A stretch of DNA of 64,000 nt from an uncultured Candidatus Saccharibacteria bacterium (GCA_964494765.1 CAZBRP010000008.1:4069-68068); one strand, 5' to 3'. Counted from the stretch's first letter, positions 262 through 11,469 are shown. Program-made: numbers and translations. The notes: generated from the sequence alone by a model not told the origin.

Positions 262-1197
262 TTACTTATCGAATCTTAATTTGATTACCTGCCTAAATAT
301 ACTCATAGCGTAGTCAATGTCGTCTTCAGACTTCACATATAACAAACTTACCGGTGTGTTTTTTGATTCGAAACTGTTCTTTTTATATGACACTAGTGAT
401 AAAGGATCGTTAACTGATTCGGGTCTAATTCCTGGTATATCCAATCGTAAAGAACCTACTTGTGGGTGAACATACACCAATGTATCCCAACCGTTTTCTC
501 GCAGCGAAAAGCCTATGTACCCTCCTCTAGGGTTTTCATTTATGTTAGGGTATACGGTTGATAACTTATCTTTGAAGGTTTCGTAGAGTGAATATGTGTC
601 ATTTTTTGCCCCTGTAAAATGGTCAGACACATTATAAACTTTCACTTCATTGCTAACTTTTTGAACAGTAAAATCTTTTGTAACTGTTTTTATGGATTCT
701 GTAGTTTCTTTAGCCCGCAGTTGATTGAATAGGACGCTATCATTTTCGTACTGTTTTACCTGCCATAATTCGATAGGCATATCCCTGAAATTGATAGCCT
801 GTTGCTGGTGGATAGTAAAAGATTGCGCAACAAAAATAACTCTTGATTGAGTCCAATCTACTTGCGCCTTTGTAAGGGTCTTGCCAGTCTGTTCGTTATA
901 GAGCAGAATAAATTCTGCTTTGTTATTAAGTAATAGGGCTAAGTAAGCGTAGCCCTGGTCAACGACACTAAAACTTCTATCTCGCTTATATTCAATTATT
1001 ACAAAAGCATTGCTGTTATCATCGTAGGCGACCGTATCAAGTCTTAACCCATTATGTTCAAATTCTGTAGCAACGAACCTTAAACCAAATACGACTTCAA
1101 GATTTTCCTCGCATAATTGCTGTATGTGCTTTTCTAGACTTATTTTGGTCTCAGAAATTTCTTTAAGTTTGCCGTCAGTATTCTTAAATAATGCCAT
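262..1197 (-). CDS. PD-(D/E)xK nuclease-like N-terminal domain (NucS/DUF91-like) with an uncharacterised C-terminal domain (DUF5655-like)
   Basis: 311-aa ORF. Nuclease-like core LDTVAYDD...AFVIIEYKRD (D...ExK). It lies last in the same-strand string after the type I R-M genes. Confidence 0.5.
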   Translation of the reverse strand: MALFKNTDGKLKEISETKISLEKHIQQLCEENLEVVFGLRFVATEFEHNGLRLDTVAYDDNSNAFVIIEYKRDRSFSVVDQGYAYLALLLNNKAEFILLYNEQTGKTLTKAQVDWTQSRVIFVAQSFTIHQQQAINFRDMPIELWQVKQYENDSVLFNQLRAKETTESIKTVTKDFTVQKVSNEVKVYNVSDHFTGAKNDTYSLYETFKDKLSTVYPNINENPRGGYIGFSLRENGWDTLVYVHPQVGSLRLDIPGIRPESVNDPLSLVSYKKNSFESKNTPVSLLYVKSEDDIDYAMSIFRQVIKLRFDK

Positions 1198-1256
1198 ATC
1201 TCAACTGTACTCCCCTTAATAACATGTCATAAATTATTGCCTTTATTAACATAATG

Positions 1257-1964
1257 CTACTCATCCACTAAATTAATGGTTTCATCAATATTCATCGAAT
1301 CTAGCATCAAATACAGAGATGTAACTGACATTTTTAGTTTGAATATACTAATCGCAATTATAGTCTTCGCGGCATCAGTCAAATCTTTTCTAATTGGATT
1401 TATTGCTAACACAAATTCGAGTTCTTTATAATCAGCACGAACCTCTAATAATTTTATTCTTACTTCTAACGGTAGCGCAAAAGAGTAGAGTTGCATTATT
1501 TGATCTATCTCATAAATATTGTTCCGAGACTCTGACATTAATCTAGTAGGTAAGTTTTTAAAGTCAAGATCCGTCCTTGTATGTTTAATATCTTTTAACA
1601 TTTTTACTAAATCTAGTGTTTTATTTTCATGGTCCTCAAAGGAGCGCATTTTATAGAATTCATTCGGATCCATTGGATGCCCATAGATTTTACCCATATC
1701 AAGAATAGTGCCATATATTGTTGTGTGTATATTTGACTTAGCCAAGCGGTAAGCCGGTTTTGTTTTGTCGGTTGTGTTCTTGTGTCTTACATACCCTACG
1801 AAAACTAATGCTACCGACGCGGTTATTAAACTCGCACTTAGATTTATCAGGAGGTCACCTACGAACTGATACTTACCAAAACAATACGCGAGTATCAATA
1901 ATAGTACTGAACTTAATGCGCTGAGTATTATCAACTGCTTATTTATACGGTCAAAGTAATTCAT
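1257..1964 (-). CDS. Hypothetical membrane protein with two N-terminal TM helices and a helical C-terminal domain
   Basis: 235-aa ORF. Hydrophobic segments LIILSALSSVLLLILAYCFG and LLINLSASLITASVALVFVGYV. No recognisable catalytic motif. Confidence 0.55.
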   Translation of the reverse strand: MNYFDRINKQLIILSALSSVLLLILAYCFGKYQFVGDLLINLSASLITASVALVFVGYVRHKNTTDKTKPAYRLAKSNIHTTIYGTILDMGKIYGHPMDPNEFYKMRSFEDHENKTLDLVKMLKDIKHTRTDLDFKNLPTRLMSESRNNIYEIDQIMQLYSFALPLEVRIKLLEVRADYKELEFVLAINPIRKDLTDAAKTIIAISIFKLKMSVTSLYLMLDSMNIDETINLVDE

Positions 1965-2002
1965 AATTTTTCGTAATCATAGGATAGTAAATGAGAGTTT
2001 TA

Positions 2003-4168
2003 TCATTTCAACATATCTCTCAATGCTACCGGTAGTTGATCCAATTTTTGCAACGTCGACTTATGTCCTGTTTCAAAACTCAGATAGGTTATTCCATTCT
2101 TATCAAACTTATCAAAGAATAATAATTCAAGGCGCATACATGTCTGACATTCCTCAAGCACGATAAATGGATCAAGGTTAAGATAACCACCATCTTCCCG
2201 CATTATTAATACCGCATCGGTTTTTATAGGCTTTACGGTCTGTCTGGTTTGAATACTGAAATGACTGTTATCTCCCATCAAATCGTAATATTCAACTTCA
2301 AATGAATCGTCATCAAAAGTTAATTTGGTGGATTTTGCGAGTTTGTATTTATATACAAAACCCAATAAATTAATCGTATCTGAAATAATGGGTCTTAAGT
2401 TATCAAAGTGACGCCGATATTCTAGGTCGGGCATAGCAGCGCCATGACCTAATAAATCGTTCCTGTCCCTGATAACATCGTGAAATGTCTCTGCGTATTT
2501 ACCCAAACGGACATCTTTTAGTTCAGATAAAAAGGGTTGAGCATCAGGTTGATTTTTTAGTTTTGTCAGCGCGAAAAATATGTTTACCCAATCGCCCAAT
2601 GCTGGTCGTTGAAGCCTATCTATACCCATCCCAGGGTCCTCGCCCATATTTAGTCGAGTAAGGTAGTCAGAAACATTGATAAGTGCAGTGTACTTTATTA
2701 GGCTTTCAAAGAGTTCGACTAAGATGCTGTATTTATCCTTGTAGGTCTGCGCGTTATCAAGTTTGCGTTGAACAATAGCGATTGGGAAAGGAAGTAATTG
2801 AGAGTACGACTCCTCTGCCTTTAAATATAAGCCTTTTAGATTTGCATTCAATGATTCGTAAATGAATGGATTAGATTCGAAGGATTTCTTAGTATTATCT
2901 ATTACACTAATTAGTTTTTCACTTAAGGCTTCCATCTCTTTGTATGCAGATGCTATGTTCCACTGTATCTCGAGTTCAGGGACAATAATCTCCAGTAAGC
3001 CTAAATCTTTAACGGAAATATAAGGAATGGTTGAGCCTTTTACAATTTTAGATAGCGCATTGGCTCCTATTTCCGAATCAAGGAAAGCAATAAAGTAATC
3101 GGGGTCAATACTTTCATTGAACGTAATGAAAATCGAGTTTTTCTCATTGACCGTATGGTCATCAGCCTTTTTTATGTTACTCCCGGTTTTATTGATAGCA
3201 ATTTGAGAAGAATTCTGTTTTTTACTAACACTAAATGAGGCGACCTCTTCTAGATTCATAACCTGATGCGAATAAGGAAGGTTTTTGAGTTGTTCCGTAT
3301 TATCAATGGGTTCGTGGTACTTATAATCCCATCTGTCAGTTGCATCAACTTCTGCTAGAAATCCTATTTTAGGCTTCCTACCTTCTCGTAACTCATTTAT
3401 TGCCTGTATAACATGATTTAATTCACTTAAGTCTTCAACTTCAATGAATAGCGTATTCACGATTCTTGTATTTTTTCTCAATACAATTAAAGACGTTTTG
3501 ACTCCTGTATATGGAGAAAAGGTAGCAGACGGCAAAGATACAATAGCCTCTAAGCCAAAGTTTTTTAGATAAAACTGTCTTAACTTTTTCTGCCTATCGC
3601 CGTATAGGAACACTTCTGGAAGGATCAATATTGCTTGGTCATTTGTGCCCTCATTTATTGCTTCGGCGAGTTTAGTATCAAAATCACCTTTTATGCCAAA
3701 TGGGGGTATTGTTACTACATTTTCAAATTGTGTACTTCCACGCCAAGAAGTAGGATCATCTGCGACTAGGGTGGAAACTTTCGCATTACCGATACTTATT
3801 AAACGGCAAAAGTTCAGCAATTCTTGATTAGGCTCGACTCCTGTATATTCGACTCCTTGCGTTAGTTCACCGTATCGCGAAAACAAGTTCAGCGTTTTAC
3901 CGGGAACTAATAAGGAAACCACTAATCGATTTATATCTTTTGGTGTATATGGACTTCCAGAGGCAACACGGTTGCCCATGCCTGTTCTGCTTATGAGCCG
4001 TGCAGCAATTTCCTTAAATTCCTCACTCTGATATTCCTCTTTAGTGAATAGTTCGAAACGACCTGATGTGTAATCCTCCAGAAGTGGTGTCGCTTCAAAA
4101 CCATAAGGCAGATTACTGCGATGAGTTTCAAATTTCTTCCAAAGTGATTGAGTTGAGATGTTAGTCAT
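2003..4168 (-). CDS. Degenerate N6-adenine methylase-like domain, one HsdS-like target-recognition domain, and a helical C-terminal domain with an Rx5H (HEPN-like) motif
   Basis: 721 aa. SPYTPKDINRLVVSLL resembles the HsdM pre-motif I. The motif-I position reads LNLFSRYGEL instead of DPxxGSGGFL. Motif IV reads TIPPFG instead of NPPF. KGSTIPYISVKDLGLLEIIVPELEIQ resembles an HsdS TRD/conserved-region junction. The C-terminus contains IRDRNDLLGHG. Its start overlaps the hsdR stop by 8 nt. Confidence 0.6.
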   Translation of the reverse strand: MTNISTQSLWKKFETHRSNLPYGFEATPLLEDYTSGRFELFTKEEYQSEEFKEIAARLISRTGMGNRVASGSPYTPKDINRLVVSLLVPGKTLNLFSRYGELTQGVEYTGVEPNQELLNFCRLISIGNAKVSTLVADDPTSWRGSTQFENVVTIPPFGIKGDFDTKLAEAINEGTNDQAILILPEVFLYGDRQKKLRQFYLKNFGLEAIVSLPSATFSPYTGVKTSLIVLRKNTRIVNTLFIEVEDLSELNHVIQAINELREGRKPKIGFLAEVDATDRWDYKYHEPIDNTEQLKNLPYSHQVMNLEEVASFSVSKKQNSSQIAINKTGSNIKKADDHTVNEKNSIFITFNESIDPDYFIAFLDSEIGANALSKIVKGSTIPYISVKDLGLLEIIVPELEIQWNIASAYKEMEALSEKLISVIDNTKKSFESNPFIYESLNANLKGLYLKAEESYSQLLPFPIAIVQRKLDNAQTYKDKYSILVELFESLIKYTALINVSDYLTRLNMGEDPGMGIDRLQRPALGDWVNIFFALTKLKNQPDAQPFLSELKDVRLGKYAETFHDVIRDRNDLLGHGAAMPDLEYRRHFDNLRPIISDTINLLGFVYKYKLAKSTKLTFDDDSFEVEYYDLMGDNSHFSIQTRQTVKPIKTDAVLIMREDGGYLNLDPFIVLEECQTCMRLELLFFDKFDKNGITYLSFETGHKSTLQKLDQLPVALRDMLK

Positions 4169-9761: not shown

Positions 9762-11450
9762 ATGGATGAGTTGAGCAAACAACAACAACTGCTAGAGATG
9801 CTTAAGGGCGGTGACTCAAATGAGGATACACTAGATAAGCAAAAAGTAAGGTATGCACTTTATGCTCGTAAATCAACTACAGGAGATGAAAAGCAGTCGT
9901 CATCTATCGAGGACCAGGTCCGGGATTGTATTGACCGTGTTATTGAACCGCAGGGTCTGAATTTAGTTGCGACCTACGAGGAGAAGTTTTCTGCCAAAGA
10001 GGCTGACACGCGCGAAGAATTTAAGCGACTCATAAACGATATTCAGCGTGGCAGGATAGACGGAGTGATTGCCTGGCATCCGGACCGGCTATCGCGGAAT
10101 ATGAAAGAGGCAGGTACGATTATTGACCTCGTTGATAAGGGTTCAATCAAGGATCTACAGTTTGCTACCTTCACTTTTGAGAATAACCCCGCAGGTAAGA
10201 TGTTACTCGGCATTACGTTCGTAATGGCAAAACAGTACTCGGAACACCTCAGCGAGTCGGTAGATAGAGGAAATCGCAGGGCTATTGAGGATGGAGAGTT
10301 TATCGGAAAATTCAAACATGGATACGTAATAGACGCTGAACGCCATTTCCAGCCCGACCCCGATAGTTTCATAAAGATTAAGCATATGTTCGAGATGGCG
10401 CTTGCTCGTAAATCTCAAAAAGAAATAAGGCTGTGGATCAATGAGCAGGACTACAAGGTCCAAAAGAAACAAGGAGCAGATCCAGTAGGTCATAAATGGA
10501 GCAAGGATGATGTGTCTGAACTCTTACGAGACTCTCATTATGCGGGTGTACACAAATGGGGTAAGAACTTAATTGCCATAGCAGAATTCTACGAGTTCCA
10601 GCCGATGATAACCGTTGACCAGTTTCTGGAAATTAATAAAATAGATAGCCTCAATTCTTCTAAGGTCCTGGCGCTGAGGCGACCGAGGACCGAAACAAGA
10701 GCGGACTTTCTAAGGGGCGTTGTCTACTGCGGACACTGCCACAAGACTCTGACATCAATGCTAATCGATAAAAAGAAAGATGGTGCGATAGTCAGTTCAA
10801 GGTATTACTACAAATGCGAAACGGCGGGTTGTGAAATGGAGGGTAAGTCCGCCCGTGCCAAGTACGTGATAGATGCTGCACAAGAATTTCTGGCAACTTA
10901 CCTATTTGTTAACAAATCGAACTATGCAACCTTTCTAAAGAGCGCAAAAGCCCAGATAAAACGCACCCAACACGACATAGACTCGGCGATTGCAAAACTA
11001 ACAAAGGACATCGCGAATAAGCAGTCTGCATACGAGAATATAAAGAGACTAATAGAAAGAGACGAGGCTGGCACACTTAAGCGGCATTATGACCTTGATG
11101 AAATATTGGCTGCTGTAACCGATATGCAAGAGCGACACGCTAAATTGGTACAGATGCGCAGGGATGCACCGAACGCACTGCCTACATTCGAGGAATATCT
11201 CAAACTATTTGAATCGACCTCTGTTATTTTGGGCAAAATACGCGATATGAAGCAGATGGACGCATTCATCAGGATTTTCTTCTCTAACTTTACAATTACA
11301 GCTACCGGAGAAGACTTCAGACGGGGGTCAACAGTAGTGTATAAACTAAACGAACCCTATGAAGGGTTCGTTAAAAATGGTGATTTCGTTCTTGGTGCGG
11401 GTCAGGGGACTCTAACCCCTGGCCTCATCCTTGGCAAGGATGCGCTCTAA
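9762..11450 (+). CDS. Large serine recombinase (integrase type)
   Basis: 562 aa. Resolvase catalytic domain YALYARKSTTGDEKQSSSIEDQ and DRLSRN, then a recombinase domain, a Cys-rich zinc ribbon (CGHCHK...YYKCETAGC) and a coiled-coil. The last 58 nt overlap tRNA-Gly on the opposite strand. Confidence 0.9.
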   Translation: MDELSKQQQLLEMLKGGDSNEDTLDKQKVRYALYARKSTTGDEKQSSSIEDQVRDCIDRVIEPQGLNLVATYEEKFSAKEADTREEFKRLINDIQRGRIDGVIAWHPDRLSRNMKEAGTIIDLVDKGSIKDLQFATFTFENNPAGKMLLGITFVMAKQYSEHLSESVDRGNRRAIEDGEFIGKFKHGYVIDAERHFQPDPDSFIKIKHMFEMALARKSQKEIRLWINEQDYKVQKKQGADPVGHKWSKDDVSELLRDSHYAGVHKWGKNLIAIAEFYEFQPMITVDQFLEINKIDSLNSSKVLALRRPRTETRADFLRGVVYCGHCHKTLTSMLIDKKKDGAIVSSRYYYKCETAGCEMEGKSARAKYVIDAAQEFLATYLFVNKSNYATFLKSAKAQIKRTQHDIDSAIAKLTKDIANKQSAYENIKRLIERDEAGTLKRHYDLDEILAAVTDMQERHAKLVQMRRDAPNALPTFEEYLKLFESTSVILGKIRDMKQMDAFIRIFFSNFTITATGEDFRRGSTVVYKLNEPYEGFVKNGDFVLGAGQGTLTPGLILGKDAL

Positions 11451-11469
11451 ACAACTGAGCTAGACCCGC
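11393..11469 (-). tRNA. tRNA-Gly (anticodon GCC), CCA encoded
   Basis: Hand-folded cloverleaf: GCGGGTC/GACCCGC acceptor, GCTC/GAGC D stem, CATCC-TTGCCAA-GGATG anticodon arm, AGGGG-TTAGAGT-CCCCT T arm, then ACCA. The T loop (A at position 56) and D loop (T at position 19) are atypical but can pair with each other. Confidence 0.8.

Follow-up and report, generated by a model that had tools for sequence, protein, structure and literature searches.

Restriction-modification (R-M) is the commonest form of phage defence, and DNA mimics are a routine means by which phages disarm it. To our knowledge, few "anti-anti-restriction" devices are understood, namely PrrC, PARIS, Ronin and some retrons. PrrC is a HEPN-type anticodon nuclease encoded in the EcoprrI type Ic R-M locus, and has been proposed to act as a second line when a phage inhibits restriction. 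Ronin combines an hsdS-hsdM decoy with RonA, a protein of 61 amino acids (aa) with a single transmembrane (TM) segment, usually without hsdR; methylase catalysis is dispensable to it, and the loci in which it resides are type I/IV composites or of BREX type (Silas et al., bioRxiv 10.1101/2023.04.06.535777). In the Hma or "type-1 BREX-related" systems a Swt1-like HEPN domain (Ava_2192-type) is fused to a DUF499 ATPase and has been read as a back-up suicide effector. A methylase domain and one target-recognition domain (TRD) are further combined on a single chain in the type IIG, IIL and ISP enzymes, which carry DNA nucleases or translocases and have active NPPF/NPPY motifs. Here we describe a gene, encoded within a type I R-M operon of an uncultured Candidatus Saccharibacteria bacterium (GCA_964494765.1 CAZBRP010000008.1:4069-68068, a stretch of 64,000 nucleotides that we refer to in its entirety as the window), whose 721-aa product joins a degenerate HsdM-like domain, a single TRD and a C-terminal module composed of a HEPN-like helical domain and a beta domain. 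We hold it to be an evenly balanced proposition that the product of this gene unites a sensor with an effector in a single polypeptide, constituting an R-M-linked abortive-infection device with a trigger that we infer; its role would probably be that of a back-up suicide switch when phages disable restriction.

Like PrrC, the fusion is predicted to place a HEPN-type RNase within a type I R-M locus. However, PrrC has an ABC-ATPase regulatory N-terminal domain and is located between hsd genes, whereas the fusion has an HsdM-like and TRD-containing N-terminal part, and its HEPN domain, which comes from another family, precedes a beta domain with a CxxC dyad. Searches against Pfam, NCBIfam and PADLOC recovered no ATPase domain of the kind present in PrrC or RloC from the 721-aa protein. 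The comparison with PrrC drawn in the preliminary description of this locus is a reasonable one, with Ronin being the closer precedent. As in Ronin, type I methyltransferase parts are proposed to serve as a sensor rather than as a methylase, and the two share similar type I/IV or BREX-type contexts; but Ronin has separate canonical HsdM and HsdS subunits with a small membrane toxin, while the fusion is one chain that carries the HEPN domain beside a complete hsdMSR. In the window hsdR is present, the methylase and specificity parts are fused, and the adjoining 235-aa protein with two TM segments (2-TM protein) is not co-inherited with the fusion and is set apart from RonA as the latter has been described. 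The Hma/DUF499 proteins resemble the fusion in that one of the core components of an R-M-like system bears a HEPN domain, but there the carrier is an ATPase and the HEPN domain is N-terminal, whereas here the carrier is a methylase/TRD unit and the module, for which Pfam has no model, includes a beta domain in addition. In contrast to the type IIG, IIL and ISP enzymes, with which it shares a methylase domain and one TRD on one polypeptide, the fusion has a predicted RNase and lacks the catalytic N/D. By analogy, the single chain of the fusion would take the part that PrrC plays for EcoprrI and that Ronin plays through HsdMS and RonA. R-M-embedded HEPN back-ups (PrrC), HEPN domains on R-M-like components (DUF499/Hma) and HsdMS decoys (Ronin) are already known separately; a degenerate HsdM-TRD protein fused to a HEPN module inside hsdMSR operons was not found in the literature searched, and no source that we found names the proteins of this set.

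In BLASTP the N-terminal half of the 721-aa protein shares 25% identity with the neighbouring HsdM over 236 aa (E = 5e-8); it is also recognized by the PADLOC profile MTase_I (E = 1.6e-13) and, over residues 178-262 and above the curated cut-off, by the Pfam model N6_Mtase (E = 4.8e-9). The HsdM_N domain (PF12161), which the neighbouring HsdM possesses, was not found in it by a Pfam search. We aligned the window protein with the true HsdM and twelve family members (alignment A6). In this alignment AGSAGF and NPPFGG are intact in the neighbouring HsdM, while the window protein has an arginine in place of the first glycine of the GxG in motif I. The xxGxG form of motif I, the (N/D)PP(F/Y/W) form of motif IV and HsdM_N, which together mark an active HsdM, are all missing from it. 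The clade to which it belongs (the window protein, P0003, P0004, P0008, P0013 and P0022) is typified by a motif IV of the form [ILVC]PPFG or worse, without the N/D (in P0022 it reads NVPIG), and in most members by SGxG in motif I; the sequence FSRYG at this position is confined to the window protein and its 87%-identical relative. The motif II glutamate (G-V-E-P-N) is retained in most of the clade. The deeper branches of the family (P0020, P0032, P0045, P0039 and P0035) have N/D-x-P-[WFYL] in motif IV and DPxCGxG in motif I. The preliminary description had regarded the N-terminal half as HsdM-like and probably dead. The degeneration of motifs I and IV and the clade-wide loss of the N/D of NPPF agree with this, but the loss of the GxG is restricted to the window protein and its close relative, and the deeper family members retain fully canonical methylase motifs.

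Comparison with the 87%-identical relative gave ratios of nonsynonymous to synonymous substitution rates (dN/dS) of 0.14 for the methylase-like part, 0.065 for the TRD, 0.039 for the helical domain and 0.073 for the beta domain. The fusion open reading frame (ORF) is under purifying selection in every domain, and with dN/dS values of 0.039-0.14 it is not a decaying gene. This bears on the view that the protein has no special function, whether as a second methylase of the ordinary kind, as a surplus specificity subunit or as the remnant of a decaying gene. Such a view could draw on the N6_Mtase match above the curated cut-off and on the label "N-6 DNA methylase" assigned by PGAP to a distant relative. 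It is hardly credible in light of the missing N/D, GxG and HsdM_N, the strong selection on all domains, and a C-terminal module that is conserved and widely shared.

The relative so labelled, the one found in an annotated record, is WP_329529687.1, a 963-aa protein of a Streptomyces linear plasmid (L048 7294-10185, NZ_CP109471.1), which combines HsdM_N, DPTCGMGG, NPPF and a TRD with the same HEPN module (here with RNKIRH). Neither hsdR nor hsdS adjoins its gene, and it may represent a self-contained methylase-RNase system. Taken with the grouping by motifs I and IV, this canonical relative indicates that the window protein is a degenerate derivative of a family of methylase-TRD-effector fusions. 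In two soil contigs (L014 4121-6715 and L016 9122-11716) a fusion homolog lacks the first ~160 methylase residues and its ORF extends upstream through a DUF3631-like segment; this extension may be either a real fusion or an artefact of ORF calling.

The middle of the protein, previously proposed to be a single TRD, is indeed where the HsdS profiles match: PADLOC Specificity_I covers residues 302-407 (E = 2e-8), mad5 gives E = 2.7e-9 and Pfam Methylase_S gives E = 1.2e-3, which is under its curated cut-off. There is one TRD-like region (residues about 300-430) rather than the two of a conventional HsdS. It is conserved across the window clade (e.g. IAINKTGS and GSTIPYIS), which is unusual for TRDs. 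We considered whether the fusion might have the same specificity as the neighbouring HsdS and rejected this, for its TRD resembles neither of the HsdS TRDs. A TRD that is conserved within a clade and unlike those of the partner HsdS is more easily reconciled with a ligand common to all than with a DNA site specific to each strain.

These features also have a bearing on a different explanation, in which the fusion would read the state of DNA: the methylase-TRD part would flip a base into its crippled pocket, and an unmodified site or a phage-type modified adenine would turn on the HEPN domain, resulting in a type IIG/IV-like sensor with an RNA-cutting output. Such a function would account for the retention of the TRD and the aromatic PPF loop, of the motif II glutamate and, in most of the clade, of SGxG. 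It would likewise suit the deeper members, which look like active methylases (DPxCGxG with NPPF, DPPF or NIPW) on the same HEPN module and could mark self DNA, and the frequent GmrSD neighbour discussed below is in keeping with a modified-DNA theme. We nevertheless consider it rather unlikely, given that the TRD is conserved though the TRDs of the partner HsdS proteins differ and shows no match to the neighbouring HsdS, that the dead clade is without a cognate methylase to protect host sites, and that DNA binding is itself a prediction.

The C-terminal part of the fusion, a module of 280 aa, had been thought to be a single HEPN-like third; the HEPN-like character is supported, but the region comprises two domains, a helical one and a beta domain with a CxxC...H signature. 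HEPN domains are defined by an Rx4-6H motif at a helix end/loop start, with a polar residue (N, D or H) after the arginine, and by an Ex3[KR] motif in helix 2, with an insert between helices 2 and 3 (PMC3710099). Both motifs, including the polar residue, are present in the fusion. The arginine and histidine of RNDLLGH, to which attention had been drawn earlier, are conserved along with the asparagine in each of 28 diverse homologs, and the Rx4-6H spacing is maintained across the module family. AlphaFold modelled the whole module with a pLDDT of 91.7 and the helical part with one of 88.3. In model numbering the E488-SLI-K492 motif lies in the long helix 37-67, which is followed by an insert (68-115); the arginine and asparagine close helix 116-134, the histidine lies in the ensuing loop and the next helix spans 142-162. 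The module as a whole can be recognized by the signature PFPIA...LFExxxK...PSLGxW...RNx(3-5)GHG...LMGxNPxF...CxxC...GH. Within it the CxxC is invariant and the histidine is at least 90% conserved (alignment A5); zinc or RNA may be bound by the beta domain, for which small beta-barrels and uL2 came up as weak fold matches.

Profile searches with relatives of the module point in the same direction. P0105 and P0048 match HEPN_Swt1 (E = 2.4e-4 and 1e-3) and P0046 matches HEPN_MAE_28990 (E = 7e-3), all below the Pfam cut-offs, and relatives also match the PADLOC profiles Csx1 and CARF_HEPN with E-values of 0.006-0.04. The recurrent weak profile matches within the module are all of HEPN type and no other family recurs. 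When the helical model was compared with the Protein Data Bank (PDB) using Foldseek, HEPN structures came up at ranks 1, 6, 7, 13, 24, 35 and 36, among them PaREP1 (2q00), MtlR (6kcr and 3c8g) and a HEPN toxin (7ae6). The profile and structure searches that had been called for returned HEPN families in both cases, the former below threshold in relatives and the latter at the top of a ranking without significance. These lines of support, each weak in itself, converge, and the C-terminal helical domain is probably a divergent HEPN domain.

The module (window positions 2054-2806, residues 455-705; P0007-P0153) is without a Pfam model. An exhaustive profile search recovered it in 2182 representative clusters at E <= 1e-3 and in 509 at E <= 1e-10. 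It is N-terminal in NACHT/STAND proteins with TPR repeats and C-terminal in proteins with receiver (REC), cyclic nucleotide monophosphate (cNMP)-binding, Macro and methylase-TRD domains, and is also found in proteins with protein-kinase or TIR domains. The module occupies the position of an effector domain in the STAND, REC, cNMP and Macro proteins.

By comparison with the module, homologs of the full fusion are rare: five were found by a word-indexed search, and about a dozen clusters at 50% identity have the full architecture. A scan of the genome collection with a 5-sequence alignment gave 3 loci only, and a word-indexed search with the helical alignment returned one protein, which was already known. 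A phage origin was considered and rejected, as viral contigs and the phage collection contained no relative of the fusion. Most of the homologs known lie in type I R-M operons: at least eight other loci have the fusion inside one, and the gene is syntenic with such loci in many unrelated contigs, as would be expected from the preliminary description. The order is hsdM-S-R-fusion-GmrSD in metagenome-assembled genomes of Clostridia (L001, L002, L005 and L007) and in L010, R-fusion-GmrSD in L009 and L011, fusion-hsdM-S-R in L003, S-fusion in L019 and R-fusion-2TM in the locus of the 87%-identical relative (L004). In L049/L050, which encode a member with canonical motifs, it is hsdR-UvrD-hsdS-TIR-hsdM-fusion; here the type I operon (L049 1-10175) is interrupted by genes for a UvrD-like helicase and a TIR-domain protein, with an nSTAND3 gene downstream. 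The fusion can therefore be placed after hsdR, before hsdM or after hsdM. A gene for a GmrSD-like protein (DUF262-type, type IV) repeatedly follows the fusion (L001 12200-14323, L010 6964-9036, L009, L011 and L012), and this recurrent neighbour gives rise to composite type I - fusion - type IV loci, which resemble the type I/IV and BREX settings described for Ronin. Further contexts include a PglZ-domain protein with a methylase and a HerA-like ATPase (L018), an AAA_13-like gene (L013) and an SF1 helicase (L021).

In the window the fusion gene belongs to a group of six minus-strand genes at the left end. Its start codon (ATG, 4168-4166) precedes the stop codon of hsdR (TAA, 4163-4161), resulting in an overlap of 8 nt within ATGACTAA, where the minus strand reads ...ATA AAT GAC TAA. 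The coordinates thus uphold the overlap and the translational coupling of the fusion gene to hsdR suggested earlier. This overlap, which suggests stoichiometric co-production, along with the location of the gene in R-M operons (after hsdR, or before or after hsdM) and the precedent of PrrC in EcoprrI, could favour a guard of the PrrC kind, in which the methylase/TRD part docked on HsdMSR keeps the HEPN domain latent until inhibition or disassembly of the complex frees it. Yet at least two families are represented among the partner HsdR proteins, with EcoEI_R_C in the window, L010 and L049 and T1RH-like_C in L001 and L003, and some members stand alone or beside systems other than type I. Because of these differences among partners and the members without a type I partner, a conserved docking surface is not obvious, and we regard this explanation as improbable.

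Instead, we suggest a mechanism in which the fusion would dimerise through its HsdS-type helix and the HEPN domain, producing an M2-TRD2 body that would resemble the M2S1 methyltransferase. The HEPN RNase would be off until a ligand fills the DNA-binding groove, the likeliest ligands being DNA-mimic anti-restriction proteins such as Ocr or ArdA, which phages deploy against type I R-M and BREX; once activated, the RNase would cut cellular RNA and the infection would be aborted. We favour a DNA mimic as the trigger because catalysis has been lost while the fold and the TRD are conserved; because one TRD is common to hosts with differing R-M specificities; because the host systems, namely type I systems from several families together with a PglZ/methylase locus, are of the kind that Ocr-type mimics target; and because the HsdMS of Ronin acts as a decoy independently of methylation. 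According to the title of PMC7261183, Ocr is an inhibitor of both type I R-M and BREX. In its most specific form, with a one-chain type I methyltransferase decoy that dimerises to present an M2S1-like groove, is bound by Ocr/ArdA and switches on a HEPN RNase of an uncatalogued family, and with the HEPN + beta/CxxC module serving thousands of STAND, receiver, cNMP and Macro proteins as their general suicide effector, the proposal is tentative, and we would call it possible rather than likely.

Several observations weigh against this proposal. The RNase activity and the trigger are both predictions. The C-terminal 282 aa had no match in Pfam or PADLOC, and the sequences in the PDB gave only a spurious match to S3a. 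The strongest profile match among the relatives, of P0069 to HEPN_RiboL-PSP (E = 2.2e-6), scores 28.2 bits against a cut-off of 28.4. In the Foldseek search of the PDB no match of the helical model was significant, the best being 2q00_A (E = 0.44, probability 0.51), and the two-domain model likewise gave no significant match, with noise from uL2 and beta-barrels; a search of BFVD with the helical model returned no match. Moreover, as the methylase-like domain has kept PPF and the motif II glutamate, along with SGxG in most clade members, it could still bind a flipped base or a nucleotide, which would favour the reading of DNA discussed above. The deeper family members with canonical methylase motifs, one of them standing alone on the Streptomyces plasmid, imply that neither the linkage to R-M nor the "dead" state is universal. 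Finally, at the locus L047 (2240-8686) the HsdR of an hsdMSR operon shares at least 90% identity with that of the window, yet the operon is without the fusion; its hsdS differs (373 aa), and downstream, on the opposite strand, comes a reverse-transcriptase gene. The slot held by the fusion is consequently variable, and the 3' end of the hsdMSR operon is a swap site for accessory defence genes.

The features of the window considered here are collected in Table 1. The motifs LNLFSRYGEL, IPPF and RNDLLGH were all found at the positions given for them in the preliminary description. Promoter and terminator scans of the window gave counts at the level of shuffled sequence and are thus uninformative regarding operon structure.

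Table 1. Coordinates of the R-M operon, the fusion gene with its domains and motifs, and adjoining genes in the window
Feature	Position	Strand	Basis
hsdM, canonical type I methylase, 487 aa	7715-9178	minus	Pfam N6_Mtase (4e-54) and HsdM_N; PADLOC MTase_I (6e-144)
hsdS with two TRDs, 391 aa	6539-7714	minus	Pfam Methylase_S (4.5e-21) over two stretches; PADLOC Specificity_I (5e-35)
hsdR, type IB (EcoAI/EcoEI) family, 790 aa	4161-6533	minus	NCBIfam restrict_EcoAI (1.1e-246); Pfam ResIII and EcoEI_R_C
Fusion gene (degenerate methylase, one TRD, HEPN-like and beta domains), 721 aa	2003-4168	minus	ORF calls, profiles, alignments
HsdM-like Rossmann domain, residues 49-262	3383-4024	minus	BLASTP to neighbouring HsdM; Pfam and PADLOC matches
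Degenerate motif I LNLFSRYGEL, residues 93-102	3863-3892	minus	Alignment A6 with HsdM and canonical DPxCGxG relatives
Degenerate motif IV IPPF for (N/D)PPF, residues 154-157	3698-3709	minus	Alignment A6
HsdS-like TRD and conserved helix, residues 290-440	2849-3301	minus	PADLOC Specificity_I and mad5; Pfam Methylase_S below cut-off
Helical HEPN-like domain, residues 455-610	2339-2806	minus	AlphaFold (AF2) models; HEPN profile matches of relatives; rank-1 fold match 2q00_A (not significant)
E488-x3-K492, Ex3[KR] of predicted HEPN helix 2	2693-2707	minus	Invariant in alignment A1; consensus LFExxxK[FY] in A5 and A9
R569-N570-DLLG-H575, predicted Rx5H catalytic motif of HEPN type	2444-2464	minus	R, N and H invariant in 28/28 homologs
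Beta-rich domain with C674-x2-C677 and H702, residues 611-705	2054-2338	minus	DSSP of model: nine strands
2-TM ORF, 235 aa	1257-1964	minus	ORF call
PD-(D/E)xK and DUF5655-like ORF, 311 aa	262-1197	minus	ORF call
Large serine recombinase, 562 aa	9762-11450	plus	Pfam Resolvase (2.8e-23) and Recombinase (1.9e-10)

The fusion gene is followed on the same strand by the genes for the 2-TM and PD-(D/E)xK-like proteins, at intervals of 38 nt and then 59 nt. The former has hydrophobic segments at about residues 10-30 and 37-58 and no family match in Pfam, NCBIfam or PADLOC. The latter carries D...EYK, shows weak Pfam matches to DUF5655 (E = 7e-5), HSDR_N_2 and NucS_C, and matches the PADLOC model PDC-S18 (PDLC04945) over its full length (residues 1-305 against positions 1-301 of 302, E = 1.3e-96). 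PDC-S18 is a single-gene defence candidate of PADLOC-DB v2, and no function has been reported for it in the literature searched. It had been suggested that these genes act with the fusion in a three-gene system, the fusion serving as the sensor and the other two as effectors or partners. Their arrangement on one strand with such short gaps, with no terminator-like site between them on that strand, and the presence of the 2-TM gene after the fusion in L004 as well, would agree with this. Conservation of the trio next to type I R-M loci was looked for in other genomes and was not seen: besides the window, the 2-TM gene adjoins the fusion only in L004, where the ORF that comes next is a different one on the opposite strand; the PDC-S18 gene adjoins no other fusion homolog, neither neighbour occurs at any of the more distant homologs, and the 311-aa protein corresponds to a stand-alone candidate. 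Homologs of the 2-TM gene elsewhere follow a KAP NTPase gene (L039/L040) or lie among housekeeping genes (L041 and L043/L044). The suggestion of a three-gene system is accordingly abandoned as very improbable.

The affinities of the 2-TM gene lie elsewhere. Between the window, L039 and L004 homology at the DNA level begins and ends exactly at the 2-TM ORF (1257-1964 in the window, 8001-8717 in L039 and 3225-3932 in L004). The large serine recombinase of the window is 59% identical to one encoded in L039, where the 2-TM gene stands at the far end of the cargo and a KAP NTPase takes the place of the R-M genes and the fusion. From these contexts, the related recombinase and the restriction of homology to the 2-TM ORF, we conclude that the 2-TM gene is a component, as backbone or as cargo, of a family of recombinase-borne islands whose cargo is exchangeable, and does not belong with the fusion. 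The 3' end of the recombinase gene overlaps a tRNA-Gly gene (11393-11469, minus strand), and the block of R-M, fusion, 2-TM and PDC-S18 genes looks like the cargo of an integrative island. A search for an att-like repeat common to the tRNA-Gly side and the left part of the window found none, and the left end of the island probably lies outside the window.

If the proposed function is correct, the fusion would provide a compact and testable case of a sensor that derives from a disabled version of the attacked enzyme itself and is coupled to an RNase. Definition of the HEPN + beta module would, in addition, allow many STAND, two-component and cyclic-nucleotide-linked proteins to be annotated as candidate RNase effectors. 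In the fusion family itself, the gradient from canonical motifs in the deeper branches to dead motifs in the R-M-embedded clade would offer a view of a modification enzyme in the course of becoming a sensor.

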